From Candidatus Moraniibacteriota bacterium (GTDB lineage Bacteria > Patescibacteriota > Minisyncoccia > Moranbacterales > DUUL01), in assembly GCA_041596615.1 (NCBI GenBank), contig JBFHIG010000007.1:1-59180 (forward strand): DNA of 59,180 bases, given 5' to 3'. Under the pieces are notes generated by a model. That model was given only the letters and a program-made list of their open reading frames with translations. It did not search any database and was not told the origin of the DNA. The translations under genes and the position numbers were made by a program. Below, in pieces: positions 4,096 through 47,568 of the stretch. The stretch's first letter is position 1. Each line of letters opens with the position of its first letter.

Positions 4096-5196
4096 ATGCA
4101 ATCTACCGACGAAGAAAAATTATACACTCTCGCCTTTAGTTTTATTCCCTCGATTGGACCTGCTCGTTTTGAGATGATAAAAACTTTTTTCAATTCACTA
4201 AAAAATGCCTGGGAAGCGAATGAATCTCAATTGATCAAGTCAGGAATTGGAGCAAAGTCTGCCAAAGCTATAGTTGAAAATAGGAATAAAATTTCTCCTG
4301 AGGAAAAATTAAAAGAGCTGAAAAAACTTGGGATTTCTTTTATCATAAAGAGTGATGCATCTTATCCAGAACTTTTAAAAGAAACATCCTCTGCCCCTTC
4401 TATTCTTTTTTATATTGGAAATTTACAAGCGCTTAAGCAAAAGATAATTGCTATTGTTGGTCCTCGCACTCCAACACATTATGGAAAAAATATCACAATA
4501 AAATTCGCAACAGAGTTAGCAACTTCGGGGATTGTCATTGCTAGTGGTATGGCAAAGGGAATTGATTCAATTTCTCATAAAGCTTGTGTCGATATTGAAA
4601 AACCAACAATTGCTGTTTTGGGTTGTGGCATTGAAACATCTAGACAAAATCTTGAAAATAAAAAACAAATTGATGCAATAATAGCAACTGGAGGGTTAAT
4701 TCTATCTGAGTATCCGCCTTTTTCAAAATCAGCAAAATACACCTTCCCTGCCAGAAATAGGATTGTGAGTGGAATTTCACTTGGCACATTAATTCCAGAG
4801 GCTAGCTTACGCAGTGGAACTCTTATTACTGCACGACTTGCAGTTGAACAAAACCGCGAAGTTTTTGCAGTTCCTGGAAATATCTTTTCTGAAAAATCAA
4901 CTGGAGCAAATTGGTTATTGAAAAATGGTGCAGTTGTTGTTGACTCCATTTCAGATGTTTTTGAGGCACTTAATTTCACCTACGCACCAAAAGATGCGAA
5001 AAATGAAATTAAACACTCTTTCGGCGATAAAGTAGAAGAAGAAATTTATGCTCTTCTTTCTGTTGAACCTTTGCATATAGATATTCTTGCACGAAAAGGT
5101 AAAATCGATCATTCAACCCTACTCTCAAAGTTATCACTATTTGAACTAAATGGGATTGCGCAAAATATTGGAGGAGGAATGTTTGTTAGGAAATAA
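4096..5196 (+). CDS. dprA: DNA-processing protein DprA (Smf)
   Basis: 366 aa. Rossmann-like core motifs GPRTPTHYG..ASGMAKGIDS..FPARNRIVSGIS..LITARLAVEQNREVFAVPG. The conserved dprA-topA pairing is present. Confidence 0.9.
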   Translation: MQSTDEEKLYTLAFSFIPSIGPARFEMIKTFFNSLKNAWEANESQLIKSGIGAKSAKAIVENRNKISPEEKLKELKKLGISFIIKSDASYPELLKETSSAPSILFYIGNLQALKQKIIAIVGPRTPTHYGKNITIKFATELATSGIVIASGMAKGIDSISHKACVDIEKPTIAVLGCGIETSRQNLENKKQIDAIIATGGLILSEYPPFSKSAKYTFPARNRIVSGISLGTLIPEASLRSGTLITARLAVEQNREVFAVPGNIFSEKSTGANWLLKNGAVVVDSISDVFEALNFTYAPKDAKNEIKHSFGDKVEEEIYALLSVEPLHIDILARKGKIDHSTLLSKLSLFELNGIAQNIGGGMFVRK

Positions 5197-5371
5197 AGTT
5201 GTGCGCAATATATGTCGTTTAGCTTAAAGCACATAGCAAAGATGTAGTTATTTACTGTTTATTGGCTGGTTAACGGATTGTTAAAATAAGATAACTTTGA
5301 ATCTTGAATTTCGAATTATTTAATAACTAAAGAAAAGTTAATTTTAAATTTTTAAAGGAAGAGGTGCCACT

Positions 5372-5419
5372 CCCTCCCTTAGATTGAGGGAGGGTTAGGG
5401 TGGGTTAAGAGCCTGAGTT
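5372..5419. repeat. Intergenic hairpin repeat, same family as 3903-3950, copy b
   Basis: CCCTCCCT-tagattg-AGGGAGGG forms a perfect 8-bp stem and is followed by TTAGGGTGGGTTA. A degenerate third copy (TTCCCCTTAGACCAAGAGGGAA) lies at about 5458-5480, and a related hairpin (TCTCCCTTCACAAAGGGGGA) at about 1403-1424. Confidence 0.7.
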
Positions 5420-5849
5420 GAATTAGCTTTAAATTTCAGAAACCCAACTCCTCCTAGCTTCCCCTTAGACCAAGAGGGAAACAGGAAACGACAAGCCCAT
5501 TCCAGCGCAAAGTTTTTGACTTTTTCAAAAAACCCTTTACTATCAAGAGTAATTGTGTCATATTGTAGCGAACCCGTCGTATAACATGCTATAATTAATT
5601 ATTGCTTATTAATAAGCTAATGTGTTAACGGATTGCGAGAACTGTGGATTAATTTTCAATTTTTAATTTATAATTTCTAAACAATTTTCAATTAGCCAAT
5701 TTCTAATTTAAAGACAAGCAAAAAATCGCTGGGCATTGTTGGTCAATCACAGCACAACAATATCGTAGTCACACTTTCTTTTAGTCATTAAATCATTATA
5801 AATTTTTTGAAAATTGAAAATTAGAAATTGAAAATTCTTTTACTGCAAT

Positions 5850-5877
5850 ATACTAAATACTAAATACTAAATACTAG
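5850..5877. repeat. Tandem heptamer (ATACTAA) x4 directly upstream of topA
   Basis: ATACTAA ATACTAA ATACTAA ATACTAG, ending 9 nt before the topA ATG at 5887. Confidence 0.8.
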
Positions 5878-5886
5878 CCCTGCCTT

Positions 5887-8076
5887 ATGAAATTAATGAT
5901 TGTTGAGTCTCCTGCGAAAGCAAAGACTATTTCTAAATATTTAGACAATAAATACACTGTCAGAGCCTCTGTTGGTCATGTTCGAGATTTACCGAAGAGT
6001 AATAAAAAGGCAATTGACTTTGAAAACGGGTTTGCCCCGTCATATGAAATTTCCGAAGGGAAAGGGCATATAATTGCTGAAATTAAAGAACTTGCCAAAA
6101 AAGCCACCGAAGTTGTTCTTGCGACTGACCCTGATCGAGAAGGTGAGGCAATAGCTTGGCACATCGCTGAAGCAATTGGTCTTAAAAATCCAAGGCGCGT
6201 CACTTTCAATGAAATCACCAAAGATGCTGTTTCCGAGGCAATGAAACATCCTCGTGATATTGATATGAATCTTAAAGAGGCTCAGGAAGCACGTCGAGTT
6301 TTGGATAGACTTTTTGGATATGATTTATCTGGTCTTATTTGGAAAAAAGTGCGCTATGGTCTTTCAGCTGGAAGAGTTCAGTCCCCAGCACTAAGAATCA
6401 TTATGGAACGTGAAAGAGAGATTAGAGCCTTTAATTCACATACCTTTTGGGTAATTACCGCACTACTTCTGACTAAAAAAGGTGAGTTGCTACAAGTGCT
6501 TTGTTCGAAGGAACCAATCAATAAAGACATTGTGGATATGATTGTTGCCGCAGGTAAAAAACAAGCATGGACCGTAACCGATATCAAAGAGACTAAAGCA
6601 AAACGTTCACCTCGAGCGCCTTTTATCACTTCCACTTTACAACAAGCTGCAAGCTCAAGACTTGGCTTCCCTCCCTCAAAAACCATGTCTGTGGCACAAA
6701 AACTCTATGAAGCTGGACATATCACCTACATGCGAACTGACAGCACTAATATTAGCACTGGGTCAAAGGCTCAAATTAAAAAATTGGTAACTTCTGGTTT
6801 TGGCAAAGAATATTATACTGACCGTTTTTTTGGGAAAAAAAGTAAAGGAGCACAAGAAGCTCATGAAGCAATCAGGCCTTCCGATCTAACCAAACGAGAG
6901 TGTGGAAGCGCCCCTGATCAAAAAAAACTATATGATTTAATTTGGAGAAGAACTGTGGCCTCACAAATGTCTGATGCCAAAATTTTGCGGTCAAAAATAA
7001 TAGTTTCGTTAGAAGATAAAACCTTACCAACTTTTTCAGCAAACGGTTCCAGAATACTGTTTGATGGTTGGTATAAAATTGATCCAGCATCACGTGGTGA
7101 AGATGTTGAGATTCCAAAAGTAACCAAAGGTGAACAATTAAAGTTCAAAAAGATTGAAACTGAGGAGAAAGAAACCCAACCACCAAATCGCTATTCTGAA
7201 GCAGGACTTATTAAAGAACTTGAAAAAAGAGGAATTGGACGCCCTTCGACATATGCACCAACTTTACAAACCTTGAAAAATCGTGGCTATGTTGAGAAAA
7301 TCGGAAGCGCCCTTCATCCAACTGACACTGGTGATGTTGTGAGTTCTTTTGTGGAAGAAAATTTTGCTAAATACATAAGCGACTCTTTTACGGCAGAGAT
7401 GGAAAATAAGTTAGATAAAATCTCTGAAGGCAAAGAGGGTTATGAAAATACTTTAAAAAATTTCTATACTCCTTTTACAAAAGATATAGTTTCCAAAGAA
7501 AAAATGGAAAAAATCACCACACTTTCAGATGCTGATGCGAAACATAAGTGTCCTGAATGTGGTGGTAAAATGGTAATCAAACTCGGAAAAGCTGGGAAAT
7601 TTATCAGTTGTGCTAAATTTCCTGATTGCACAGGAGCATTGACTATCGAGGGTGTGAAAATAGAAGGACCAAAGATGTTAAAAGAAAAATGTCCAAATTG
7701 CGACAGTTTTTTGGTCGAGAAAGAGGGGCGTTTTGGAAAATTCATCGCCTGTAGTAATTATCCGAAGTGCAAATTTATCAAAAATGACCCTGTGGAGGAA
7801 GAAAAAAAGAAAACTGGTGTCGAGTGTCCTGTCTGTAAAAAAGGAGAGCTGGTGGAACGTAAGGGACGTTTTGGAGTGTTTTACAGTTGCTCCGATTACC
7901 CAGATTGTAAAAATGCAATCAAGGCAAAGCCTACTGGAAGGATTTGTGACTTCAAACGCAAGGATAAAGAAGGAGAAATTTGTGGAGCTTTAATGATGGA
8001 AGGAACAAAAACAATTCCGGAACGTTGTAGTGATAAAACTTGCCCCAATCACAATCCACATAAGTTGGATAAGTAG
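5887..8076 (+). CDS. topA: DNA topoisomerase I
   Basis: 729 aa. TOPRIM N-terminus (MKLMIVESPAKAKTI..ATDPDREGEAIAWH), active-site region (ITYMRTDS), and four C-terminal CxxC...CxxC zinc-ribbon repeats. Confidence 0.95.
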   Translation: MKLMIVESPAKAKTISKYLDNKYTVRASVGHVRDLPKSNKKAIDFENGFAPSYEISEGKGHIIAEIKELAKKATEVVLATDPDREGEAIAWHIAEAIGLKNPRRVTFNEITKDAVSEAMKHPRDIDMNLKEAQEARRVLDRLFGYDLSGLIWKKVRYGLSAGRVQSPALRIIMEREREIRAFNSHTFWVITALLLTKKGELLQVLCSKEPINKDIVDMIVAAGKKQAWTVTDIKETKAKRSPRAPFITSTLQQAASSRLGFPPSKTMSVAQKLYEAGHITYMRTDSTNISTGSKAQIKKLVTSGFGKEYYTDRFFGKKSKGAQEAHEAIRPSDLTKRECGSAPDQKKLYDLIWRRTVASQMSDAKILRSKIIVSLEDKTLPTFSANGSRILFDGWYKIDPASRGEDVEIPKVTKGEQLKFKKIETEEKETQPPNRYSEAGLIKELEKRGIGRPSTYAPTLQTLKNRGYVEKIGSALHPTDTGDVVSSFVEENFAKYISDSFTAEMENKLDKISEGKEGYENTLKNFYTPFTKDIVSKEKMEKITTLSDADAKHKCPECGGKMVIKLGKAGKFISCAKFPDCTGALTIEGVKIEGPKMLKEKCPNCDSFLVEKEGRFGKFIACSNYPKCKFIKNDPVEEEKKKTGVECPVCKKGELVERKGRFGVFYSCSDYPDCKNAIKAKPTGRICDFKRKDKEGEICGALMMEGTKTIPERCSDKTCPNHNPHKLDK

Positions 8077-31634: not shown

Positions 31635-32159
31635 TTATGCATTCTCTTTTGACTCTTTGATTGCATTTAGCGCATAAACGATATTCCTTAGGTTTCCGCT
31701 AAGTGCGCCCACAAAACCTGTAATAGGAGCTTTAATTGTTCCCACAACTTGTCCAAGTAACTGTTCTTTTGTTGGAAGTTGTGCAAGATTTGTAATCTCT
31801 TCAACGGTAAGTTCTTTTCCTTCGAGAGATCCAGCTCTAATCTGGAAAGCTTTCTTGGTTTTTGAAAAATCAAAAGCTACTTTCGAAGAACAAACCTCAT
31901 CATCTCCCCCATAAATAACTGCAATTTGACCTTCAACTTTTCTAACGTCTAGTTTTATCTTTGCGTTGTCAAAAGCTATTTGCGCGAAAGTCTTTTTGAC
32001 GACTTTCATATTTGCGTTTTTTTCTCGCAAAAGCCTTCTTAATCCGCTAATCTCAGAAACATTTAACCCTTTGTAATCACAAACGATTGCAGTTGTGGTT
32101 TCTTTGAGATTTTTTGTAAGATCATCTACTAGAGCCTCTTTGTCTTGGCGTTTAAGCAT
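31635..32159 (-). CDS. rplJ: 50S ribosomal protein L10
   Basis: 174 aa, immediately upstream of rplL. Typical N-terminus (KEALVDDLTKNLKETTTAIVCDYKGLNVSEISGLRRLLRE). Confidence 0.92.
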   Translation of the reverse strand: MLKRQDKEALVDDLTKNLKETTTAIVCDYKGLNVSEISGLRRLLREKNANMKVVKKTFAQIAFDNAKIKLDVRKVEGQIAVIYGGDDEVCSSKVAFDFSKTKKAFQIRAGSLEGKELTVEEITNLAQLPTKEQLLGQVVGTIKAPITGFVGALSGNLRNIVYALNAIKESKENA

Positions 32160-32305
32160 TTGTCTTATTTTTAATCTTTAATTATCCTGTAATAAACAAA
32201 AAACTACGCATAACGCAGTTTTAAAAGAAGTAAACAAATCCTTTTAGGATTTCGTTTCACTCCTGCTTGGGACTTACTTTTTCGCCCAAGGTCTGCGGAA
32301 TACTT
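32160..32305 (-). promoter_or_regulatory. rplJ 5' leader with stem-loops and a terminator-like hairpin (consistent with an L10-leader autoregulatory element)
   Basis: Minus strand: CTTGGG-13 nt-CCCAAG; AAATCC-taaaa-GGATTT; ACTGCG-ttatg-CGTAGT (32203-32219, including one G.U pair) followed by TTTTTTG. Assignment to the L10 leader class is by position and architecture only. Confidence 0.45.
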
Positions 32306-32310
32306 CTAGA

Positions 32311-32338
32311 ATATTATCACAACTTTATAATTTGTCAA
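32311..32338 (-). promoter_or_regulatory. Sigma70-type promoter for rplJL
   Basis: Minus strand: TTGACA - 16 nt - TAATAT. Confidence 0.55.
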
Positions 32339-32359
32339 GCATTTCAAGTTTTGGGTATT

Positions 32360-38180: not shown

Positions 38181-39449
38181 CTAAAGTCTCCCCCTTGATT
38201 TCATTGCATCCCTCACTTTCAAAATTGCTGACGCAAAAGCTGCAGTATGATAATCTGTTTTGAGTTTATTTTTCATTTCATGCAAATCAGCAAAAGCCTC
38301 TTTCATTTTGTTTTCAATTTTTTTCAAAACTTCCTGTTTACTCCATCTATCACCTGAGTTATTTTGAACCCATTCAAAATAGCTTCCCACAACACCTCCT
38401 GCGTTTGCAAGGATGCCCGGAAGAACAATAATTTCTTTTGAGAATAAGATTTCATCAGCATCAAAGGTGACAGGTCCATTAGCAAGTTCTAAAATAACTT
38501 TGGCTTTTATATCCTCAACATTCTTTTTATTGATTTGATTTTCCAGGGCTGCTGGAATCAAAACATCGACATCCAGACCCAATAAATCCTCGTTTGTTAT
38601 TTTTTCGAACTTCCCCTTCACATTCCCAATTTCCATGGACTTATTTTTTGATTTTTCTTTTTGATAACTATCTAGAATTTTTCCAATTGCCAGACCATCT
38701 TCCTTAAAAATTCCTCCTTTAGAATCTGAAATTGCCACAATCTCATAGCCTTTTTCCTCAAGAATTCTCGCTGCATTTGCACCAGCATTTCCAGCTCCTT
38801 GAATTGCAATTCTAATTTCATTATTTTTCTTTCCCCATTTTTTTTCGGTCTTTAGAAATTCCTCAAGCACTACCACACCACCAAATGCTGTTGCAATATC
38901 ACGACCAAAACTTCCACCAAAGCTGATTGGTTTTCCAGTAAAAGATGCTGGCAGATAATCATTGGACAATAAGCTGAACTGATCGGCCATCCATGCCATA
39001 ATTTGCCCGTCGGTGTTGACGTCGGGAGCTGGAATATCTTTCTTGGGACCAATCGCACCAAAAACTCCATCGACATATGCACGTGAGAGCCTTTCTAACT
39101 CGGTAGTGGACAACTTTCGTGGATCAACACTAATCCCTCCCTTGGCGCCTCCATACGGCAAATTTACTGTTGCATTTTTAAGAGTCATCAATGTTGCCAA
39201 GGCCTTCACTTCATCCAGTTTAGTATCTATGTGGAATCTGATTCCACCTTTAAAAGGACCCTGAGCGTCATTGTGCTGAACACGATATGCTTGATGTATT
39301 TCAAGATCACCATTATCCTTTTTTAATATAAGCGAAAGCTGGATAGTTCTTTGCGGTCCCAGAATTATATTCTTGGTTTGTGCTGGTAATTTGATGGCAT
39401 CGCTTGCTTTTTCAAATTTTCGCAAGACATCTTTGTAAAAATTTTCCAT
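38181..39449 (-). CDS. gdhA: Glutamate dehydrogenase (Glu/Leu/Phe/Val dehydrogenase family)
   Basis: 422 aa. GPFKGGIRFH, LPYGGAKGG, GAGNAG dinucleotide motif. Confidence 0.92.
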   Translation of the reverse strand: MENFYKDVLRKFEKASDAIKLPAQTKNIILGPQRTIQLSLILKKDNGDLEIHQAYRVQHNDAQGPFKGGIRFHIDTKLDEVKALATLMTLKNATVNLPYGGAKGGISVDPRKLSTTELERLSRAYVDGVFGAIGPKKDIPAPDVNTDGQIMAWMADQFSLLSNDYLPASFTGKPISFGGSFGRDIATAFGGVVVLEEFLKTEKKWGKKNNEIRIAIQGAGNAGANAARILEEKGYEIVAISDSKGGIFKEDGLAIGKILDSYQKEKSKNKSMEIGNVKGKFEKITNEDLLGLDVDVLIPAALENQINKKNVEDIKAKVILELANGPVTFDADEILFSKEIIVLPGILANAGGVVGSYFEWVQNNSGDRWSKQEVLKKIENKMKEAFADLHEMKNKLKTDYHTAAFASAILKVRDAMKSRGRL

Positions 39450-39483
39450 TTCTTAATCCTATTTATTATAATAAAATATAAAA

Positions 39484-40146
39484 TTACACTATTGTTTCCT
39501 TTTTTATTTCTGCTTGAATTTCTGGTGAATCAGTTTCCAATTTTTGCAGATCTTTCTCTAATTGGTTGAGATTATTTGTTTGCTCAGCTGTTTGTAAAGA
39601 CTCCTTGCCTACTACAATCTTCGAATTATAAGCAAACGCCTCACTGGAACCTTTGATGATTGCGACATCAGCAATATTCGTCTCCAAAGAATCATCAGCA
39701 TACGCAAAATAAAGAATTACAAAAATATTCACAAATGGAATAACCATAAGTGCGCCCAACCATCTAGGCTTGGAAAGTGTGGTGGCTAATTCCATCCAGA
39801 TGGTTATTCCAAATAATATTCCTATAACAGGAATGAGAAATACAAAAATTAAAGCTTGTGGCTTATTAACGATTTTTAAAAGCAAGGATAGATTCAGAAC
39901 AGGAACCCAGGCATACCAGTCATTCGAAATTTTTAATTTTCTCGCTATTTTTTGTAATGATATAGCAATAAACAAATAAGACAAAAAACTTGATATAATC
40001 ACCAAAAATAAAAATGTGCCTTCTAATTTAAGCATATTTCCTAAATTATAATAAAAAGGAAGATCGAGATCTTGATACATATCTGCTTGAGATGTGTAAG
40101 CGTTGATATCGAAAGAGGTTCTCTCTTCTTGATAATTATTGGTCAT
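39484..40146 (-). CDS. DUF5684-like membrane protein, paralog 2
   Basis: 220 aa. Core SLQKIARKLKISNDWYAWVPVLNLSLLLKIVNKPQAL..WMELATTLSKPRWLGALMVIPFVNIFVILYFAY, colinear with 37487-38077. Confidence 0.6.
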   Translation of the reverse strand: MTNNYQEERTSFDINAYTSQADMYQDLDLPFYYNLGNMLKLEGTFLFLVIISSFLSYLFIAISLQKIARKLKISNDWYAWVPVLNLSLLLKIVNKPQALIFVFLIPVIGILFGITIWMELATTLSKPRWLGALMVIPFVNIFVILYFAYADDSLETNIADVAIIKGSSEAFAYNSKIVVGKESLQTAEQTNNLNQLEKDLQKLETDSPEIQAEIKKETIV

Positions 40147-40219
40147 ACTCTTTTTATCTTGCTTTAAATCTTACATGCTCCAGTGCATTCTTCTGACAAA
40201 GTTTTCCGCAAAAAAATAG

Positions 40220-40290
40220 TCGGGCCGCCGAGAGTCGAACTCGGGCTACACACACCCCATGCGCGCGTACTACCGTTATACTACGGCCCG
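40220..40290 (-). tRNA. tRNA-Pro (anticodon GGG)
   Basis: Hand-folded cloverleaf. Acceptor CGGGCCG/CGGCCCG (C1-G72), D arm GTAT-AACGGTA-GTAC, anticodon arm CGCGC-AT[GGG]GT-GTGTG, 4-nt variable loop, T arm CCGAG-TTCGACT-CTCGG, discriminator A. No encoded CCA. Confidence 0.9.
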
Positions 40291-40296
40291 ATAAAA

Positions 40297-41391
40297 TTAT
40301 TTTATCAAATTAAAATCAAAAAATATATCCCTTAAAATTTCAGTAAATTTTTTAAATTGAGAAATTGAGAGTTTTTCATTTACTGTGTGGCACCCGTAGT
40401 ATCCCAATCCAACATTTACAGATTCTATCTTTTTTTCCGCAAGACAATTATTGCTACTAATGAGCAGTTGTTGTTCCAGTTCAATTTTAACTCCATTATT
40501 AAGATAAACCTTTTTAAGCTTTGTTACAAATTCCCCCTTCTTGTTAGCAATGGCCGAACTATATTTCTCCACAATTTTAATCTTAGTTTTTGTTCTAAAT
40601 TCTTCATCAGCAGACTCACAAACAACTGCTAGGTTTTTTATAAATTCGTCAACATCATCTTCTTCAAAACAATAGATATTTCCTTTCAGATAAGCATCTT
40701 TAGCTACCATTGTAGTGCCCTTTCCGCCATGAATGATGCCCGTGTTTGCAACACATCCTTTTTTATAAAATCCCCAGTCAATTGAATCTATAATTCTAGC
40801 TAAAGTTGCTATTGCATTGGCACCTTTTTCATAATCAATTTGAGCATAAACTTCTTTACCTTTTATGGAAATTTCAAAAACTTTTGCGTTAGGACTTTTG
40901 TAGAGAATTTTTTTAATCTCAGCTGCGTTATCAAGAACAATCGCTTTCTTAGAGGAAATATCGGCATATGAAAGAGTGTGATCACCCTCTTCTTCGTTCG
41001 TTGAAAAAATCAATTCGAGATTTTGCAATTCCTTTTTCTGTTCAAGAAAATATTCCACTAGAAACATTATTGCTGCAATTCCAGATTTTGGATCAGCTCC
41101 TAAAATTGTAGTACCGTCCGTGATAATAAAATCACCTTTAATTCTGGGCTTAATTTTTTCGCCAGGACTTACCGTGTCTACGTGTGTCGTTAAAAGTAAT
41201 GCCTTTTTTGGATCAAAAATCTTTGTTTTAAAAATTAAATTTCCCTTTTCATCCAAACCACCAGAAAAATTATACTTCAGAAAAAAATCCAAAAGTAGCT
41301 GTTGAAATTCTGCTACTTGACCTGTTGGGCTAGACTTCTTAATTAATTTTAAGAAAATTTGGATCAATCTTTCATTATTCATTTTTTGCAT
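40297..41391 (-). CDS. M20 family metallopeptidase (PepT-like)
   Basis: 364 aa. LLTTHVDTV, TTILGADPKSGIAAIM (compare the GADDKAG of peptidase T), FSTNEEEG. Confidence 0.7.
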   Translation of the reverse strand: MQKMNNERLIQIFLKLIKKSSPTGQVAEFQQLLLDFFLKYNFSGGLDEKGNLIFKTKIFDPKKALLLTTHVDTVSPGEKIKPRIKGDFIITDGTTILGADPKSGIAAIMFLVEYFLEQKKELQNLELIFSTNEEEGDHTLSYADISSKKAIVLDNAAEIKKILYKSPNAKVFEISIKGKEVYAQIDYEKGANAIATLARIIDSIDWGFYKKGCVANTGIIHGGKGTTMVAKDAYLKGNIYCFEEDDVDEFIKNLAVVCESADEEFRTKTKIKIVEKYSSAIANKKGEFVTKLKKVYLNNGVKIELEQQLLISSNNCLAEKKIESVNVGLGYYGCHTVNEKLSISQFKKFTEILRDIFFDFNLIK

Positions 41392-41471
41392 TTTTTTAAA
41401 ACTATACTTTATTATACACTTTTTATTCCCTCTGTTAAATTGTCTTTATTAAAAAAATAATTTAACAAAGG

Positions 41472-41499
41472 GCGGGATTTCGTTTTTAAGAAATCCCGC
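41472..41499 (-). terminator. Hairpin downstream of the 490-aa orphan gene
   Basis: GCGGGATTTC-8 nt-GAAATCCCGC (10-bp perfect stem) with T-rich flanks on both strands. Confidence 0.55.
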
Positions 41500-41528
41500 A
41501 CAGTTTTTTATATTTCAACATTGACCCT

Positions 41529-43001
41529 CTAGGAACAACAGAGCTCCCTAATGTTCCTCCTCGATTGACTCAAGACCTCCAGTTGATTGAAAAGTTGATT
41601 TAAGTTGGTCTCGACAGATGATTGTGGCAAATCGCTGAAAAGATTTTCACAAACAGCAAACATCCCAGCTTCATGAACACAAAATTCCCATCTTGGTAAA
41701 GAAATTACTTTAACCATCTCGCCTCCACCTTTACAACGGCAAGCGACTTTTATTTTCTTTACGCCTATTTCCCTGAAAGAAAGAGCTTCCGACAAAGAAC
41801 GATAGAAATCACTAGAGATCCACCAACCGTTGTTCCTTAAAAATCCCAAACGTTTAAAACGTTCACAGTAGATTTTTTCTGCTCTATCAGTGACAATTTC
41901 TTCCGCTCTATCTTCTGTTCCAATTATCTCATCAGCATGATATCTGAGCCAAAGATTATCAGAGCCCTTGATTCCACAAAATCCAACGAAGCCCTCGGAA
42001 TTATAATAATCCATCAGAGCAACGATCATGGTGTCAAAGATATTTCCTCCGCCCAAAAGTTGTGAAACAGCTTCTTGCACCTGAAAGATAACCTTTTTAT
42101 TGGGAAATTTCGAGTGTGGCAAAAATCCTTCGACAAAATTTAGCTGTCGGTCGATTTGCATTGGAGAAACTTGGACAGTAACTATTTGTGGAATAATATT
42201 CCCAGCACCATCGCGAATCATCTGATAGGAAAGTTTGAAAAATCCAACCTGCGGATCTTCCAAGCAAATTGAAAGACTCATTCCCATGTGACCTTCCCCG
42301 TCACCAAGAGAAAAGCGCAAGAAAACATCTTTAGATTCATCTTGGATAAGAATTTTTCCAATCCTTCGATAAAAACCCTTGGGGATAAAAACATTTCTTT
42401 TCTTATCATGGTCAATGGGGATGCCAGTTGAACGATGGACGAAAGCAAAAGAAGATCCAAAAATCCTTTTTCTTTCTTGTAAATTGATTGATATTTGATC
42501 AAGATATGTTTCGATTGTAAGTTTTTTAACCCCAATCATACTGAGCAAACTCTCACAACGAAAAATTCCAAAAGGATACACCTCCCAAAACAAACCTCCA
42601 AAATCAGAAATCTCTTCCAGTAATTGCTGGTTTATTTTCAGAAAATTTTGAACAGCAATGAGGCCGTCTTCTAGAGAAACTTGGTTTGAAGTTCGCAACA
42701 GAGCAAAATCAGAAAGAAACACTCTTTCATCTTTTGAGCAGATTATTCTACTCACCACGTGATCGATTCGAGATCCGTCGTAGGTTACCGATGATTCATC
42801 GGCTCCAGCGAGGAATCCTGCCCCACATAAATATTTCAACAAATCAATAATTATTTCTGGGTCAATTTTCGGAAATTGATCAAATAAAAAGCTACATGCT
42901 TTTTCCCCTGCGTCACTCAAAGAAACTTCAAAAAGAAATCCAAACCATCCACGATGATAAGCACCAATTGAACCATTAAACAAACTAATCTCTTGTTTCA
43001 T
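41529..43001 (-). CDS. Orphan 490-aa protein, no recognisable motif (protein A)
   Basis: Long uninterrupted ORF preceded by GAGGGG 7 nt before the ATG. Soluble and Cys-rich toward the C-terminus (..ACRCKGGGEM..FCVHEAGMFAVCE..ELCCS). I cannot assign a family. Confidence 0.75.
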   Translation of the reverse strand: MKQEISLFNGSIGAYHRGWFGFLFEVSLSDAGEKACSFLFDQFPKIDPEIIIDLLKYLCGAGFLAGADESSVTYDGSRIDHVVSRIICSKDERVFLSDFALLRTSNQVSLEDGLIAVQNFLKINQQLLEEISDFGGLFWEVYPFGIFRCESLLSMIGVKKLTIETYLDQISINLQERKRIFGSSFAFVHRSTGIPIDHDKKRNVFIPKGFYRRIGKILIQDESKDVFLRFSLGDGEGHMGMSLSICLEDPQVGFFKLSYQMIRDGAGNIIPQIVTVQVSPMQIDRQLNFVEGFLPHSKFPNKKVIFQVQEAVSQLLGGGNIFDTMIVALMDYYNSEGFVGFCGIKGSDNLWLRYHADEIIGTEDRAEEIVTDRAEKIYCERFKRLGFLRNNGWWISSDFYRSLSEALSFREIGVKKIKVACRCKGGGEMVKVISLPRWEFCVHEAGMFAVCENLFSDLPQSSVETNLNQLFNQLEVLSQSRRNIRELCCS

Positions 43002-43065
43002 AGCAATCCCCTCTGTGTAAGTTATATTTCGTTACGTCGTCAATGTAAAATTTTTCAAGGTACAT

Positions 43066-43257
43066 GTACAAAAAAGCCGCCTTGGGGGCGGTTTATGTTT
43101 GCTTGTCTGAGAATCTATTTAGCTAACTTATCTGATTTATTCTCTGAAAAATTCGTCTAGCAAACACAAAACGCCCGGAGTGACCGGAGATTTTTTTGCG
43201 ACATGCTTGGCTGAATTTTTTAAATCAATCAGATTCATAACTTAAAATAAATTCTAT
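43066..43257 (-). promoter_or_regulatory. Leader cassette 1: short ORF + terminator/antiterminator switch upstream of protein A
   Basis: The terminator is CCGCC-cccaa-GGCGG + CUUUUUUG (43094-43066). The antiterminator pairs RNA CCGGGCGUUUUGUGUUUG (plus-strand coordinates 43178-43161, inside the short ORF) with CAAACAUAAACCGCCC (43101-43086). That gives 15 of 16 pairs including one G.U, and it overlaps the 5' arm of the terminator. Confidence 0.5.
43137..43238 (-). CDS. Candidate 33-codon leader peptide (MNLIDLKNSAKHVAKKSPVTPGVLCLLDEFFRE)
   Basis: ATG..TAA ORF between a consensus promoter and an intrinsic terminator. No obvious SD. Its position relative to the antiterminator matches that of the ORF at 45347-45439. 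Confidence 0.3.
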   Translation of the reverse strand: MNLIDLKNSAKHVAKKSPVTPGVLCLLDEFFRE

Positions 43258-43263
43258 GCAAGA

Positions 43264-43291
43264 ATTATAACAGTTTAATTTAAGGTGTCAA
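43264..43291 (-). promoter_or_regulatory. Consensus sigma70-type promoter of leader cassette 1
   Basis: Minus strand: TTGACA (43291-86) - 16 nt - TATAAT (43269-64). Confidence 0.6.
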
Positions 43292-43383
43292 ACTTCTCCA
43301 ACAAAAATATTTTTAAAACGTATTTATTTTATCAGGAAAATTAATAATCTTATCATTGTTAATATTTTCCAAATAAACAATCT

Positions 43384-44328
43384 CTATTCATTTGAAAAAT
43401 CAACAACAATCTTTTGCGCTTTACTCAGAAACTCACCCTTTAATCTACTGATATCATCTAGGTCGCTGTGATAAACTGGCATAAGCCCATCAATATCTCC
43501 TGCCAAAACAACTGTTTTGTTTTCAAATTCATTCAAATTTTTTATCGGGAATGCTTGAAATAAAAGTTCTTTATTTTTATATAAATTAGGCTCACTATGG
43601 CCAACCCCATCAACGACGACTATTTTTTTTACTTTTTTTAGTAAATTTAAGTATTTTTTCTCAAAATCCCTATAGCCAAATCCCCAGTAAACTGGGTACT
43701 CATAGGATAATTCCTCTGAGCCACATATAGCAAAAAGATTATCTTTTATTATTTTGGGATTTGAAATAATTGCATCAAGAATAACTGCCACACCACTTGC
43801 ATTATCTATTGCTCCTTTTTTTATACTATCAATATGAGTAAAAAAAATATTTTTTGGAGCTTTTTTGTTACCTACTAAAAAATTTGCGCTTTTGCAAAAC
43901 TTTTTTTCAACTTTCGTAAAACCCTCTATTTTTTCTGCATTTAAAACTCTACAAACATCCATAGATGAAATTGCTAAAGAAGGCGCATTATAAAAACTAA
44001 CCAACGAAATATCCTTACAATATGGATTAAAGTTTATATTTGGGGAGCTCGACTCAAAATCAGACAAAGAGCTTACTAGGTTGTGTTTATTATCAATACT
44101 GCCGCTTATGAATCCACTGTTTTCGCAATTTATTTCAACATTATCGACCTTAAGTCCTGATGAAATTTCAACTGGTATACAATTTTCATAACTTTCAATC
44201 TCAAATTCAATCCCATTTGCTCTAAGAATTTTTTTTATTTCATTTATCGCGATTTCCTCACCTTCGGATTGGCGCTGAGGAATTTCTGTAAGTTTTTCAA
44301 TAAATTTTAGTTTGCTAAATTTCTTCAT
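43384..44328 (-). CDS. M28 family aminopeptidase-like protein (protein B)
   Basis: 314 aa. FFTHIDSIKKGAIDNASGVAVILD (the HxDS...GAxDNASG metal-ligand signature of M28), GSEELS. Confidence 0.7.
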   Translation of the reverse strand: MKKFSKLKFIEKLTEIPQRQSEGEEIAINEIKKILRANGIEFEIESYENCIPVEISSGLKVDNVEINCENSGFISGSIDNKHNLVSSLSDFESSSPNINFNPYCKDISLVSFYNAPSLAISSMDVCRVLNAEKIEGFTKVEKKFCKSANFLVGNKKAPKNIFFTHIDSIKKGAIDNASGVAVILDAIISNPKIIKDNLFAICGSEELSYEYPVYWGFGYRDFEKKYLNLLKKVKKIVVVDGVGHSEPNLYKNKELLFQAFPIKNLNEFENKTVVLAGDIDGLMPVYHSDLDDISRLKGEFLSKAQKIVVDFSNE

Positions 44329-44390
44329 AATATATTTTATTAAATAAAAAGTTTTATATATTAAACTTTAAGCTCTTGGTTCATAATAGT

Positions 44391-44432
44391 CAAAAAATGG
44401 TGGGAGATGAATAGTTCATTCACCTCCCACCC
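44391..44432 (-). terminator. Intrinsic terminator downstream of protein C
   Basis: Minus strand: GGTGGGAGGTGAAT-gaact-ATTCATCTCCCACC (14-bp stem, 1 mismatch) followed by ATTTTTTG. Confidence 0.65.
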
Positions 44433-44446
44433 AAACAAAACTGTTT

Positions 44447-45193
44447 TTAACTTCTTACTAATTCTTCGAGTTGTCCAGGATACCATCCCCAGGAATTATT
44501 TGCTGCCCTATTTCTTGGAAGCAAAGAGACCACCAATGGCTTGATGCCAAATCTTTTTTGAACTTTTTCAAACGCAGGAATAACTACACTTTTTGAGAAT
44601 TCTCCTTCGCGACCCTCCAAGAGAAAGTTTTCAAAAAGAACCCCATGACAAATAAACAGCGAGAGAAACGCCTCATAATACAAGGGGGCTGAATCTCCTA
44701 TTTCCTGAATCCAAGACGATATATCAACTCGCTTGGCTTCCAAGGGAAAATAAGACTCAAACATTCTACTGTGGATATCCAAAAGACTGACTTCTGAATT
44801 GACTCTAGTCCTGATATCACAAATAGCTTTCTTTGAAGCTCTCTCAATATCAACTATCTTCTGGATGCTTGTCTTATTCCCGCCGTTTCTTCCTTTCCCA
44901 TAATAGAAAATGAGTTTTGCTAACATAACCTTGTCTACATTAGCAGAACTGAACCTATCTCTTGAATATTCCAACCAAATAGGTGTCAGACCATTTCCAC
45001 TTGTAGTTTCCCAGAATCTTATGCTTTCAAAATTTGGGGTGGCAACTTGACGAGCCATCACAGCCATTGGTCGACTTAGACAACGAATTTGTTCTGGCAA
45101 GTTTTTTAAAAAATTCTCTACTTCTTCTTTCAAGCCTGGTTCTGCAAACCTTGTCTTTATCTGTACCCGTGCATCGTTTAATTCGGTATACAT
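44447..45193 (-). CDS. Orphan 248-aa protein, no recognisable motif (protein C)
   Basis: ORF preceded by a perfect AAGGAG SD. Notable segments: RQVATPNFESIRFWE, YYGKGRNGGN, FLSLFICHGVLFENFLLEGREGEF..IPAFEKV..GIKPLVV. I cannot assign a family. Confidence 0.75.
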   Translation of the reverse strand: MYTELNDARVQIKTRFAEPGLKEEVENFLKNLPEQIRCLSRPMAVMARQVATPNFESIRFWETTSGNGLTPIWLEYSRDRFSSANVDKVMLAKLIFYYGKGRNGGNKTSIQKIVDIERASKKAICDIRTRVNSEVSLLDIHSRMFESYFPLEAKRVDISSWIQEIGDSAPLYYEAFLSLFICHGVLFENFLLEGREGEFSKSVVIPAFEKVQKRFGIKPLVVSLLPRNRAANNSWGWYPGQLEELVRS

Positions 45194-45283
45194 AGAATAA
45201 CTCCTTCTTTTTGTTGAAATTTATCTTCCCTGTTTCGCCTTATGCAAGAATTAATATCCTAGTTAAATTTAAAGAACTTCCTT

Positions 45284-45475
45284 AAAAACAAAAAAACTGA
45301 CCTACTTTGGTCAGCTTTGGACTATTGAGAATTTTTCAGACGTTTATTAGACTTCTATTCTCGACAAACCAAAACTGACCGGTGTAAACCAGAGCATAAA
45401 GAGAATAAACAAATAAGTTGTATTCTTTCCTTGATTCATCAAACTAATAAAACTAATTACGTCTATCTAAACTTC
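45284..45475 (-). promoter_or_regulatory. Leader cassette 2: short ORF + terminator/antiterminator switch upstream of protein C
   Basis: The terminator is CUGACC-aaagua-GGUCAG + U7 (45314-45285). The antiterminator pairs RNA GGUCAGUUUUGG (45380-45369, inside the short ORF) with CCAAAGCUGACC (45320-45309). That gives 12 pairs including one G.U, and it overlaps the 5' arm of the terminator. Confidence 0.5.
45347..45439 (-). CDS. Candidate 30-codon hydrophobic leader peptide (MNQGKNTTYLFILFMLWFTPVSFGLSRIEV)
   Basis: ATG..TAA ORF between a promoter (45482-45510) and an intrinsic terminator. It begins ATGAATC like the ORF at 43238. It could alternatively be a type I toxin-like peptide. Confidence 0.3.
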   Translation of the reverse strand: MNQGKNTTYLFILFMLWFTPVSFGLSRIEV

Positions 45476-45481
45476 ATCACA

Positions 45482-45510
45482 AGATTAACAATACATTGAA
45501 GGTTTGTCAA
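45482..45510 (-). promoter_or_regulatory. Sigma70-type promoter of leader cassette 2
   Basis: Minus strand: TTGACA (45510-05) - 17 nt - TAATCT (45487-82). Confidence 0.5.
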
Positions 45511-45584
45511 GTTGCTTTAACATTTTTAGATAAAATACTAAATCTTGATTCACTAAACATTTAAATATAAAAAGGTATTTTTTT

Positions 45585-45620
45585 GAAAAACTGAGGGCTT
45601 GTAAGATTCACAAACCCTCC
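45585..45620 (-). terminator. Intrinsic terminator downstream of the 66-aa gene
   Basis: Minus strand: GAGGGTTTGT-gaatctt-ACAAGCCCTC (1 mismatch) followed by AGTTTTTC. Confidence 0.6.
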
Positions 45621-45637
45621 TAATAAGCGAAGCTTTC

Positions 45638-45838
45638 TCAGTCTGCTGCCACCTGTTCAAGCAACTGCCTTGCACGTACCTCTTGCCAGTATCGTCTTTT
45701 TTTTGCCTCTTTAAGCTCTTTTTGAGGGACTCTCTGGTCCCCCTTTATACTTCGGCTGGAGCCGGACTTTTGTAGGTGTCCGATTTTTTTTTCTGTATTT
45801 CCGGCAATTATGCCTGCCTTATTCCTCTTTTTGCACAT
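45638..45838 (-). CDS. Small basic 66-aa protein, unknown function (protein D)
   Basis: ORF preceded by GAGGGGGG close to the ATG. Lys/Arg-rich with a predicted C-terminal helix (KELKEAKKRRYWQEVRARQLLEQ). It has its own terminator. Confidence 0.55.
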   Translation of the reverse strand: MCKKRNKAGIIAGNTEKKIGHLQKSGSSRSIKGDQRVPQKELKEAKKRRYWQEVRARQLLEQVAAD

Positions 45839-46124
45839 AAACCCCCCTCAGAAAATTTTCAGGATTTCCCTCTAAAAAACTTCACTTATTTTTTGACCAA
45901 ATTGTAAATTACAATCAAAGCCAAGAATAAAAAACAATTTTCTGCATCCTATTCTTGACCTAGGTCTTTTTTTAAAAAACTCTTTAAAATCAGTTCTCTT
46001 GCAGTACAAAGCTCTTGTTGTCCACAATTATACAATTATGTCAACATTTGTCAATACAATATAACAGCAATTGACATAATCGCTGAAATATACGATAGTT
46101 AAGTTACAAAATATTTCAATACTT

Positions 46125-47072
46125 ATGGACAAAATTTTGCCAAAGAAAATCAAAGTAATAGTAATCCTGGGGCCAACCTCAGCTGGAAAGTCAGATGTGG
46201 CAATTTTTTTAGCGAAAAAATTTGACGGGGAGGTAATTTCAGCAGATTCAAGACAGATATACAAAGATATGAATTTAGGAACTGGCAAAGTCGAAGGGAC
46301 CTGGAAGTTTATAGAAAGAAAATCTGCCGAGAAGGCATTCTATTCTGAAGGGATTGCACATCACTTGCTAGATTTTCGCTCTCCAAAGAATGAATACAAT
46401 ATTTCTCATTTCAAAAAAGATTGCGAGAGAAAAATAAAAGAAATCTCGTCCCGAGGAAAATTGCCAATTATTTGTGGCGGAACTGGATTTTGGATTGATG
46501 CTGTTGTTAATGGTGTTATTTTGCCACAAGTCAAGCCCGATATTGTCTTGCGAGAAAAACTTGAAACTAAAACAACTGAACTCTTGGTCGAAAAACTTGA
46601 AAAATTAGATGGAAATAGGGCTAAACACATCGATCGAAAAAACAGGGTGCGTCTTATCAGAGCCATTGAAATTGCAACAAAACTAGGAAAAGTTCCAAAA
46701 CTAGAAGTTAAGGATAATCCCAGTTTTAAATTTTTAGAAATCGGAATTGACTGGCCACAAGAAAAATTAGATGAAAAAATAAAAAAACGGTTAACCAAGC
46801 GCTGGCAAGCAGGGATGGTTGATGAGGTTCAAAATTTAAAAAATAAATATAATCTCAGTTGGAAAAAAATCCAATCATTTGGTCTTGGTTATTTTTGGAT
46901 TCCTCTTTTTATAAAAAAAGAAATTACAGAAGCTGAACTGGCAGAGCGTGTCTTTATCGCAGAAAGAGGTTATGCAAAAAGACAGAGAACTTGGTTCACT
47001 AGAAACAAAAATATTACCTGGGAAAACAAACAAAGTGAGATAAGTGCCTTTGTAAAAAATTTTTTAGCCTAA
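46125..47072 (+). CDS. miaA: tRNA dimethylallyltransferase
   Basis: 315 aa. P-loop ILGPTSAGKSDVA, ISADSRQIYKDMNLGTGK, RQRTWF. Confidence 0.9.
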   Translation: MDKILPKKIKVIVILGPTSAGKSDVAIFLAKKFDGEVISADSRQIYKDMNLGTGKVEGTWKFIERKSAEKAFYSEGIAHHLLDFRSPKNEYNISHFKKDCERKIKEISSRGKLPIICGGTGFWIDAVVNGVILPQVKPDIVLREKLETKTTELLVEKLEKLDGNRAKHIDRKNRVRLIRAIEIATKLGKVPKLEVKDNPSFKFLEIGIDWPQEKLDEKIKKRLTKRWQAGMVDEVQNLKNKYNLSWKKIQSFGLGYFWIPLFIKKEITEAELAERVFIAERGYAKRQRTWFTRNKNITWENKQSEISAFVKNFLA

Positions 47073-47297
47073 AAAGAAAAACGCTCTCGGGCAAGAGAGC
47101 GCAGTTCTTTAATCTGCTTTTTTACAAGCATTTTGAGTTTTCTAAAGAACTTACAAAGTCGTCATCTTGTATTCGAGTTTATTAGAACTCAATATATAAC
47201 AAAAGACCTTTTCATTATAACAAATAATAGATGAAAAAAAGATAAATTTTTTATGAATTTTTTATGAATTTTTTTATCTTTTATTTCCAATCTACAT

Positions 47298-47342
47298 TAA
47301 AATAAAAAGAAGTGATTCGAGGAAAATTCCTCAAACCACTTC
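47298..47342 (-). terminator. Intrinsic terminator downstream of the zinc-ribbon gene
   Basis: Minus strand: GAAGTG-gttt-GAGG-aatttt-CCTC-gaat-CACTTC followed by TTTTTATTTT. Confidence 0.6.
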
Positions 47343-47370
47343 ACAAAACACTTACATAAAACAAGAACTT

Positions 47371-47568
47371 CTAGTCAATGGGCTTCTTGCACTCCTGGCA
47401 AACGACAGGGATCTCAGGTGGTGTACGATGAGGACAATCCACCAATTCATACCACAAACCTGGCCGCCTAGAAATGGGCTTGCATTGACAACTCCCACAA
47501 CCCCCCTTTTTGTTACCATCTGCTTCTTGCCCTCTTTGATGCATTTTTGTATTCTCCATAAAATTCAT
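47371..47568 (-). CDS. Small Cys-rich zinc-ribbon protein (candidate antitoxin/partner of the upstream DUF4258-like gene)
   Basis: 62-65 aa. GGCGSCQC...C...CQEC pattern. About 50% GC in a hand-counted 60-nt stretch, well above its surroundings. The ATG at 47568 overlaps the upstream stop (ATGA). The ATG at 47559 is better spaced from the GGGAGG SD. Confidence 0.6.
   Translation of the reverse strand: MNFMENTKMHQRGQEADGNKKGGCGSCQCKPISRRPGLWYELVDCPHRTPPEIPVVCQECKKPID

Follow-up and report, generated by a model that had tools for sequence, protein, structure and literature searches.

What does it mean for a gene when a consensus promoter is followed, within some 190 nt, by an intrinsic transcription terminator and only then by the gene itself? 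This question is raised by a locus in a Candidatus Moraniibacteriota bacterium (contig JBFHIG010000007.1; the 59,180-nt stretch that was analyzed, positions 1 to 59,180, is called the window), where a promoter, a 33-codon open reading frame (ORF), and a terminator lie ahead of a gene for a 490-aa protein, ORF A. A sequence-only reading of this DNA had noticed a terminator/antiterminator switch around the short ORF, and that observation is confirmed here. We consider it fairly probable that the element, called cassette 1 below, is a cis-acting, four-segment leader-peptide transcription attenuator—i.e., one of the trp/his/phe type—that controls read-through into ORF A.

We first describe the parts of cassette 1, all of which lie on the minus strand and are given in whole-window numbering. 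The sigma-70-type promoter (43264 to 43291) consists of a −35 TTGACA (43291-43286), a 16-nt spacer, and an extended −10 TGtTATAAT with its hexamer at 43269-43264. It scores 12/12, with the TG, and is one of two 12/12 sites in an 8.5-kb scan (39000-47500); the TTGACA-16-TATAAT promoter described earlier was found in its place. Transcription would start near 43257, leaving an A/U-rich 5′ untranslated region (UTR) of ~19 nt (AUAGAAUUUAUUUUAAGUU; 43239 to 43257) that has no Shine–Dalgarno (SD) sequence. The leader ORF (MNLIDLKNSAKHVAKKSPVTPGVLCLLDEFFRE; 43137 to 43238) begins with ATG at 43238, ~19 nt from the predicted start, and runs for 33 codons to a TAA at 43139-43137, as had been claimed. 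The terminator (43070 to 43091) is likewise the GC-rich hairpin and U-run reported before, namely CCGCC (43091-43087), the loop cccaa, GGCGG (43081-43077), and CUUUUUU, with a folding energy of −8.8 kcal/mol. The gap between its U-run and the ORF A start codon (ATG at 43001) is indeed short, at ~69 nt rather than the 65 nt first given.

The strand proposed to oppose the terminator, CCGGGCGUUUUGUGUUUG, occupies codons 21-26 of the ORF, and its pairing with the terminator 5′ arm not only holds but can be extended. Thus, GGGCGUUUUGUGUUUGCU pairs at 17 of 18 positions with AGCAAACAUAAACCGCCC (43103-43086), at −21.9 kcal/mol against −7.2 ± 2.0 kcal/mol in 1000 dinucleotide shuffles (p ≤ 0.001). In attenuator terms, the antiterminator 5′ strand is segment 2 (GGGCGUUUUGUGUUUGCUA; 43158 to 43176, codons 21.7-27.7), and its partner, segment 3 (43086 to 43103), includes the terminator 5′ arm.

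Two layers of structure come in addition to this switch: an anti-antiterminator within the ORF, made of segment 1 and a small hairpin (P0), and a long helix between the 5′ UTR and downstream sequence. Segment 1 (AAGCAUGUCGCAAAAAAAUCUCCG; 43185 to 43208, codons 11-18) is the 5′ strand of the anti-antiterminator and pairs with segment 2 at −12.0 kcal/mol. P0, UCCGG-ucacu-CCGGG (43174 to 43188, codons 17-22), overlaps the 5′ end of segment 2 with its 3′ arm, is followed by the U-rich GUUUUGUGUUUG, and was flagged as terminator-like in a scan. The 5′ UTR and the first codons pair with the region 3′ of the stop codon. Between segments 2 and 3 lies a middle hairpin (43109 to 43144; GAGAAU at 43144-43139, AUUCUC at 43114-43109), which has the leader stop codon at the junction of its 5′ arm and loop and whose AUUCU has an alternative partner in the 5′ UTR.

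From these complementarities, the ~190-nt leader is predicted to have two mutually exclusive folds. In the OFF fold, segment 2 is held by segment 1 and P0 (codons 11-22), a long rod is closed by pairing of the 5′ UTR with the post-stop region (43125-43110), and the terminator, 3:4, forms. In the ON fold, segment 2 (codons 22-27) pairs with segment 3, the middle hairpin forms, and the terminator is excluded. The free leader folds as the long rod plus terminator (−54.1 kcal/mol, z −4.3). These layers bear on one claim that proved inexact, which was that a ribosome at the stop codon would mask the antiterminator strand. Because the stop codon of cassette 1 lies 19 nt beyond the 3′ end of that strand, a terminating ribosome would not cover it, and the better explanation for termination once the whole ORF has been translated is that the strand pairs again with the upstream anti-antiterminator.

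If this architecture matters, it should be visible in relatives, and the sequence-only reading had proposed looking for the short ORF and the alternative pairing upstream of ORF A homologues. A cassette precedes 7/7 homologues with informative upstream DNA (loci L001, L017, L019, L020, L021, L023, and L024). With cassette 1 and a second copy in the window, cassette 2, this makes nine leaders; the sets of eight tested leave out L024. The comparison was positive: the alternative pairing and the short ORF are conserved, with covariation, at 8/8 ORF A family genes and at cassette 2. To quantify the pairing, the terminator 5′ arm plus 12 nt was compared with the upstream transcript in eight leaders against 1000 dinucleotide shuffles each. 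Complementarity was significant in seven of the eight (p ≤ 0.001 for cassettes 1 and 2, L017, L019, and L020; 0.004 for L023; 0.011 for L021), with L001 at 0.08, and the combined Fisher p was 4e-13. Codons ~19-28 of the short ORF hold the upstream antiterminator strand in all eight.

This pairing has been kept while the sequences themselves have not. The terminator arms are unrelated across leaders (CCGCC, CUGACC, ACCGU, AUCGGC, CCGGCCUCAC, AUCGGCCUCG, AGCCAC, and GCCGCCCUC), and segment 2 varies in step with them in its 5′ part, so that the earlier claim of mutually exclusive terminator and antiterminator structures now has an architecture kept with covariation behind it. A segment 1 able to sequester segment 2 is present in every leader, with a C-G to U-A compensatory change between cassette 1 and L001 read from their alignment. 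P0, too, is found in every leader with varying stems: CCGG:CCGG in cassette 1, CCAG:CUGG in L024, CUGG:CCGG in cassette 2, and, read from the sequences, CCUC:GAGG in L019, L020, and L023 and a GGG:CCC type in L017. Counterparts of the middle hairpin were recognized by eye in L001 (UUAGAG/CUCUAA), L019 and L020 (UGAAUC/GAUUCA), and L023 (UUCC/GGAA). RNAalifold on cassette 1 and L001 kept the helices between the 5′ UTR and downstream sequence, in which a G-C to A-U compensation comes about through a "synonymous" CUG to CUA change.

We also built a covariance model, R1. MAFFT could not place cassette 1 and L001 correctly among the other leaders, and the model was therefore trained on cassette 2, L017, L019, L020, and L023, with cassette 1 left out. 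R1 recovered cassette 1 at 43068-43178 (minus strand) with 24.3 bits and an E-value of 3.6e-4 in 140 kb. It was the best match outside the training set, exceeded in score only by the five training elements on one strand or the other. Compensatory double changes occur in 14 of the 25 model pairs, a count that comes from a model-fitted alignment, leans toward structure, and is supporting rather than decisive.

The second requirement of leader-peptide attenuation is an ORF that a ribosome can use. The short ORF is open for 26 to 36 codons in 9/9 leaders, starts near the 5′ end, spans segment 2, and stops 20 to 45 nt before the terminator 5′ arm. ORFs of the observed length arose in 2-6% of shuffles per leader (eight tested, p 0.02-0.06; ~5% for cassette 1), giving a Fisher p of 2e-5 over seven leaders, L001 being excluded as non-independent. 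In a by-eye alignment of L019 with L020, the indels in the ORF are multiples of three. An SD of −4 kcal/mol or stronger precedes only 4 of the 49 genes in the window, and because its absence is usual in this genome, a leader without one is not a problem. The reading as ribosome-mediated attenuation is thus the best-supported mechanism: the switch covaries, the ORF is open in nine leaders, and the lack of an SD is the rule here.

To explore how a ribosome might throw the switch, we moved a 28-nt footprint along the leader, one P-site codon after another, and refolded the RNA each time, considering equilibrium folds and ignoring kinetics. Early positions favored the antiterminator, namely P-site codons 1-4, 7, and 13-14 in cassette 1, 1-8 in L001, 1-11 in cassette 2, 1-14 in L017, and 2-13 in L020. 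From about codon 15 up to the last codons, the terminator was favored in these five leaders. The antiterminator returned at the last codons in cassette 2 and L017; in cassette 1, this required the stop codon in the P site and the next 3′ codon in the A site. Untranslated RNA of cassette 1 and L001 also folded to the terminator.

The mechanism that we propose would therefore begin with translation of the 33-codon ORF while RNA polymerase is still on the leader. P0 and the U-rich stretch after it would pause the polymerase and so synchronize it with the ribosome; P0 followed by GUUUUG(U)GUUUG resembles a hairpin-dependent pause site, and we infer for P0 a role as pause or anti-antiterminator hairpin. 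A ribosome lagging or stalled with its P site at about codons 1-4, 7, or 13-14 would leave segment 1 or the 5′ UTR single-stranded, and the freed segment 2 would then capture segment 3, letting transcription proceed into ORF A. A ribosome passing through segment 2 to the stop codon would allow segments 1 and 2 to re-form behind it, which would lead to termination, as would the lack of any ribosome. Masking of the antiterminator strand at the stop codon, as first imagined, suits L021 and L023 better than cassette 1.

What would such a device sense? No conserved run of codons for a single amino acid is present, and the device therefore most likely senses a general slow-down or arrest of translation; induction by translation stress, as suggested earlier, is a reasonable guess. 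Amino-acid-specific attenuation was dropped for want of a codon run. Two other candidates were also set aside: a type I toxin, given that only the cassette 2 peptide is hydrophobic, and rare-codon pausing, given that the rare codons coincide with GC stems. No residue is enriched in common across the control regions, and local features are not shared between leaders, e.g., AAA AAA at codons 15-16 in cassette 1 and NKNKNNN in L023. A single Cys codon (UGU or UGC) stands at the 3′ edge of segment 1 in L017, L019, L020, and L023, a pattern whose statistic is post hoc. A Cys codon after segment 1 is an ideal stall position for antitermination. The feature does not occur in cassettes 1 and 2; L020 has an adjacent gene of the glutamate-cysteine ligase family.

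Several observations weigh against leader-peptide attenuation as we propose it. That the leader ORF is translated is something we infer from its conservation. Of the codons that differ between cassette 1 and L001, 3 do so synonymously and ~14 non-synonymously, and the final codons of the L001 ORF are out of frame with those of cassette 1 through a 1-nt indel. The reading frame divides the core GUUUUG into GUU-UUG in cassette 1, L001, and L024 and gives xGU-UUU-GG in the other leaders. Conservation of the peptide is fully explained by RNA stems, every conserved peptide stretch coinciding with one, and the nine peptides share neither a run of regulatory codons nor a known arrest motif. The switch itself is also uneven across the family. 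The homologous antiterminator of L001 is weak and a shifted pairing is used instead; R1 misses L001 and matches L021 weakly (E 0.2). In the fold simulation, which is limited to equilibrium without kinetics, the GC-rich terminators of L019 and L023 win thermodynamically at every ribosome position and the free RNA of L017 already prefers the antiterminator, so the default state differs between members. One part of this pattern can be read in the opposite direction: a frame that is kept while its residues are free is what is expected of a leader peptide that serves only as a ribosome track.

The same lack of amino acid constraint underlies a different explanation, in which the switch is real and is thrown by a non-ribosomal factor—an RNA-binding protein, a small RNA (sRNA) or tRNA, or a ligand stabilizing the rod or the antiterminator—and the ORF is incidental or secondary. 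We regard this as unlikely. In its favor, the conserved positions are RNA stems rather than amino acids, the GUUUUG(U)GUUUG core is kept as nucleotides despite differing frames, and the leader has no SD, regulatory codon run, or arrest motif. Cassettes 1 and 2 also agree in the sequence of their segment 2 and segment 3 cores, a possible recognition site, and a basic, separately transcribed 66-aa ORF just upstream of cassette 2 offers a candidate factor, if a speculative one. However, a 26- to 36-codon ORF running through segment 2 has been kept in 9/9 leaders across 24-45% GC, with the Fisher p given above, and the conservation of segment 2 is explicable by three-way pairing plus a U-rich pause signal. 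There is no match to an Rfam riboswitch, T-box, or protein-binding leader, and the fold is a rod with small internal loops, without the conserved multi-helix junction or loop typical of ligand aptamers. For riboswitches and T-boxes, no Rfam match appeared even at E ≤ 10. At the gathering threshold, Rfam found only a tRNA-Pro in the whole window, and a permissive search of the region gave only sub-threshold matches.

A second departure from our reading would keep the ribosome and give the peptide itself a sensory task. The leader ORF might encode an arrest peptide in the manner of TnaC, SpeFL, or ErmCL, co-evolved with the ORF A family and triggered by a metabolite or a ribosome-targeting compound, the two cassettes forming a small regulon; we hold this to be improbable. 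If true, the regulon would comprise ORF A, the 248-aa gene behind cassette 2, and the adjacent peptidases in a reduced, regulator-poor genome, and the leaders would be a new ligand-sensing class of leader peptides and a handle on the function of two gene families.

It is less probable still that the short ORF makes a functional product, i.e., a small protein or the precursor of a ribosomally synthesized and post-translationally modified peptide (RiPP) for ORF A or the peptidases, with a leaky terminator setting a high ratio of peptide to enzyme mRNA. The order of promoter, small ORF, terminator, and enzyme gene is a classic RiPP layout, and the ORF is always present with the ORF A family. The neighbors include peptide-active enzymes (M20 and M28 peptidases in the window; a GCS2 ligase, a C26 peptidase, and three radical SAM/SPASM genes at L020), and ORF A has a weak GNAT-like fold match. 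A (G/S/A)FG(L/I) motif also recurs toward the C terminus in L017, L019, L020, L023, and cassette 2. This motif, however, is the translated RNA core GUUUUGG(C/U)UUG, and one extra base turns it into VLCL, VLYL, or ILCL in cassette 1, L001, and L024, so that nucleotides are conserved and not residues. Non-synonymous changes dominate between orthologous leaders, and a plain leaky terminator needs no covarying 15- to 20-bp antiterminator and anti-antiterminator. Cassette 2, moreover, precedes an unrelated 248-aa gene whose homologues elsewhere lack a cassette. The placement of the cassette in front of an unrelated gene points to a regulatory module rather than a gene-specific peptide product. In known RiPP operons such as nisA-nisB and sboA-alb, a precursor gene is followed by a read-through terminator and then by enzyme genes. 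The cassettes have in common with these operons a small ORF after a strong promoter and a hairpin and, at some loci, peptidase or radical-SAM neighbors. The hairpins of RiPP operons lack a conserved, covarying antiterminator/anti-antiterminator system, whereas the cassette peptide is not conserved beyond RNA demands and the module also stands before an unrelated gene. Peptide conservation beyond nucleotide constraint, which marks a RiPP precursor, was not found.

Finally, a free-standing sRNA gene of ~190 nt, with ORF A served by its own promoter, is very unlikely: a strong promoter and an intrinsic terminator do bound a stable structured RNA (z −4.3), and a TTTACA-17-TATAAC near-promoter is readable by eye between the cassette 1 terminator and ORF A, but L001 has no such near-promoter, every copy of the element points the same way as the gene directly downstream of it, and a conserved pairing of the ORF with the terminator arm has no role in a plain sRNA. 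No promoter-like site was found between terminator and gene in seven of eight loci, cassette 1 included, so that expression should depend on read-through. An internal ORF A promoter was dropped as a candidate because it is not conserved.

We then compared leader-peptide attenuation as proposed here with known systems. The cassettes have in common with the classical attenuators of Escherichia coli (trpL, hisL, pheL, leuL, thrL, and ilvL) a promoter-proximal short ORF, alternative 1:2, 2:3, and 3:4 helices, here with segments 1 and 2 inside the ORF, an intrinsic terminator shortly before the gene, and a 1:2 hairpin with a U-rich possible pause site. The short ORF, terminator, antiterminator, and 1:2 helix that define trp/his/phe-type attenuators were all found, and the defining cluster of codons for the regulating amino acid was not seen in the nine peptides, in contrast to the cognate codon runs of the classical leaders. 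Furthermore, the ORF here crosses segment 2 and stops in the middle hairpin instead of between segments 1 and 2, the controlled gene is not a recognizable biosynthetic enzyme, and the host genome is SD-poor. The Rfam family Phe_leader (RF01859) aligns with the cassette architecture only weakly and shows no homology in sequence (20.8 bits against a gathering score of 55, E 0.56). UTP-sensitive attenuation at pyrBI and pyrE likewise involves a leader ORF and a U-rich tract, and the spacing of polymerase and ribosome could be the sensed variable. The pyrBI leader ORF extends through the terminator, and a closely coupled ribosome blocks the hairpin directly. The cassettes differ in that their ORF stops 20-45 nt before the terminator arm and in having an explicit antiterminator; direct blocking of the pyrBI type was dropped because the ORF stops too early.

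Closer in one respect are leaders whose short upstream ORFs also have no codon runs, i.e., bmrB-bmrCD and vmlR of Bacillus subtilis, lmo0919 of Listeria, the msrD leader, and toiL-topAI of E. coli. For stress-responsive leader ORFs, slowed or stalled translation has been proposed to remodel the leader RNA and give read-through (10.1101/2021.11.29.470318, PMC6310831, PMC12121999), and both mutually exclusive terminator/antiterminator leaders and stress-sensing upstream ORFs are general background (PMC5314783, PMC12121999). Those systems have demonstrated inducers and act on resistance or rescue factors, namely ABC-F proteins, HflXr, efflux pumps, and a toxin-antitoxin pair, whereas the target here is an uncharacterized family and the leader has no recognizable arrest motif; toiL differs further in being Rho-based rather than using an intrinsic terminator.

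Within the window, cassette 2 (45290 to 45510, minus strand) is a paralogous attenuator upstream of the 248-aa gene (45193-44447). Its promoter has TTGACA at 45510-45505, a 16-nt spacer, and TTAATC, and its 30-codon ORF (MNQGKNTTYLFILFMLWFTPVSFGLSRIEV; 45439-45347) begins AUGAAUC, as in cassette 1. Segment 2 lies at 45381-45363 (complementarity p ≤ 0.001) and the terminator, CUGACC-aaagua-GGUCAG plus U7, at 45314-45290. A CUGG/CCGG hairpin, GUUUUGGUUUG, and a GAGAAU...AUUCUC middle hairpin complete a common architecture that the two cassettes maintain with little sequence identity. Through cassette 2, the 248-aa gene would answer to the signal that acts on cassette 1. Scanning the 59 kb for a terminator together with a promoter, and with the covariance model, gave no third copy.

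The basic 66-aa ORF (45838-45638; MCKKRNKAGIIAGNTEKKIGHLQKSG...) belongs to a separate minus-strand unit between miaA and cassette 2 (45593-46054). This unit has a 12/12 promoter at 46054-46027, a 5′ UTR of ~180 nt, a GGGGGG SD-like run, and a terminator at 45619-45593. The very basic protein had no Pfam or PADLOC match; speculatively, it could be an RNA-binding factor. Another leader-like element on the minus strand, at 32200-32340, directly precedes the genes for ribosomal proteins L10 and L7/L12 (gene at 31635-32159). Its TTGACA-16-TAATAT promoter would give a structured RNA of ~110 nt that ends at the terminator ACUGCGUUAUGCGUAGU with U6. This element looks like an autoregulatory attenuator of the L10-leader type, and no Rfam family matched it at the gathering score. 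The tRNA-Pro(GGG) gene (40219-40290, minus strand; 65% GC) closes the ORF A-M20 block, just past the gene for the M20 peptidase, and a NusA gene is also present in the window.

The homologous loci vary in how closely they resemble ORF A and its leader, with a perfect −35 TTGACA at the equivalent place in 9/9 leaders. The two nearest, at 61% (L001) and 62% (L024) identity to ORF A, have TTGACA-17-TATATT with a 35-codon leader ORF and TTGACA-16-TATAAT with a 33-codon leader ORF, respectively. L001 has a 16-nt 5′ UTR block identical to that of cassette 1 and the terminator ACCGU/ACGGU. Among the more distant loci, L017/L018 (29% identity; TTGACA-16-TATGAT; 30 codons) has a perfect 15-bp antiterminator pairing, GCCGGUUUUGGUUUG:CAAACCAAAAUCGGC. 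L019 (31%; TTGACA-17-TACATT; 29 codons) and L020 (34%; TTGACA-17-TAAATT; 30 codons) follow. In L021 (23-31%; TTGACA-17-TATTAT; 36 codons) and L023 (34%; TTGACA-17-TTGAAT; 26 codons), the distance from the −10 to the ATG is 8 and 6 nt, respectively, and these two leaders may be leaderless mRNAs. Loci L015 and L016 are also close ORF A-M20 loci, in which contig ends cut inside ORF A and leave no leader sequence. Pattern searches with CCGGNNGTTTTGTNNTTGCNAGAC in metagenome contigs and TAGAATTTATTTTANNNNATGAATC in genome contigs gave only chance matches in GC-rich terminators or coding DNA, and neither set of returns included the window or L001.

Terminators were found in 8/9 leaders. In the remaining one, L024, the stem has decayed to −3.6 kcal/mol, compared to −8.8 kcal/mol in cassette 1. 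This locus (5001-7673) is a syntenic relative, with GDH, DUF5661, and DUF5684 genes downstream, in which ORF A and M20 each appear as several called fragments and are pseudogenes or assembly errors. Decay of the terminator alongside a broken ORF A and M20 is a natural decay control. At L001, a fragment of an integrase-core-type transposase (2-403; read from the translation) ends immediately upstream of the leader promoter and stands where an M28-like gene precedes cassette 1 in the window, and the block of cassette, ORF A, and M20 may accordingly move as a unit. At L019 (1196-1465) and L020 (2843-3001), the two relatives with higher GC, an SD-like AAGGAGGG and a common TTTCTTCTTT stretch come directly after the terminator, with 160-280 nt ahead of the called gene start. 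A further regulatory element or a small ORF may lie here, or the start may have been miscalled. R1 also gave weak matches of 22 bits on both strands at L021 4494-4577, in a short spacer between the ORF A homologue and M20, which are probably a symmetric intergenic hairpin or terminator.

ORF A itself (41529 to 43013, minus strand, including the SD) has a strong SD, GAGGGG, at 43013-43008. It had been called an orphan, which is nearly right: no Pfam or NCBIfam family matches it, and an exhaustive search of 1.84 billion representative proteins did find 12 relatives, while a word-indexed search gave one full-length homologue. ORF A, the 248-aa family, and two neighbors gave nothing significant in Pfam, NCBIfam, PADLOC, and PDB profile searches. 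AlphaFold (AF2) with a 9-sequence alignment modeled ORF A at a mean predicted local distance difference test (pLDDT) of 84 and a predicted template-modeling score (pTM) of 0.85, compared to a pLDDT of 42 with a 2-sequence alignment. Foldseek against the PDB gave no match with E ≤ 0.001 for this model, and the weak matches (best E 0.011) were GNAT-like: Naa50, the acetyltransferase toxins AtaT, TacT, KacT, and GmvT, and the C-terminal domain of Mycobacterium tuberculosis ICL2. Downstream of ORF A there is usually a gene for a PepT-like M20 peptidase. Homologues of the M20 gene (52-60% identity) and relatives of the 248-aa gene carry names from Patescibacteria/Parcubacteria metagenome-assembled genomes, and the host appears Patescibacteria-like.

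The 248-aa gene has 92 homologous proteins at ≤44% identity, encoded in toxin-antitoxin-like islands rich in HEPN/nucleotidyltransferase, ParE, and YafQ genes. In three of five loci (L003, L004, and L005), a divergent gene with an XRE-type helix-turn-helix lies upstream of the homologue, whereas the gene in the window has no XRE regulator and has cassette 2 in its place; no cassette was present in the upstream regions read at the five loci. A 247-aa gene at L021 was considered as a further homologue and rejected on comparison. The two strongest SDs in the window belong to ORF A and the 248-aa gene (~45205), the two cassette-controlled genes, and these genes have 38-39% GC, against 35% for the window and 31-32% for the neighboring peptidase genes. 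The strong SD and higher GC may reflect acquired genes or a special translational regime.

What is known of leader-peptide attenuators comes mostly from cultivated Proteobacteria and Firmicutes. Our full-text literature search returned no paper joining leader peptides, attenuation, and Patescibacteria, which does not show the mechanism to be unreported. If our reading holds, the cassettes would be a leader-peptide attenuator family with nine instances and comparative support, in uncultivated, SD-poor genomes with few classical regulators, and R1 could be used to find further members. Without regulatory codon runs, what such leaders sense becomes a question in itself. Together, the cassettes would mark two uncharacterized gene families as conditionally expressed and probably co-regulated, and finding out when termination is relieved would help to establish the function of the ORF A and 248-aa families.

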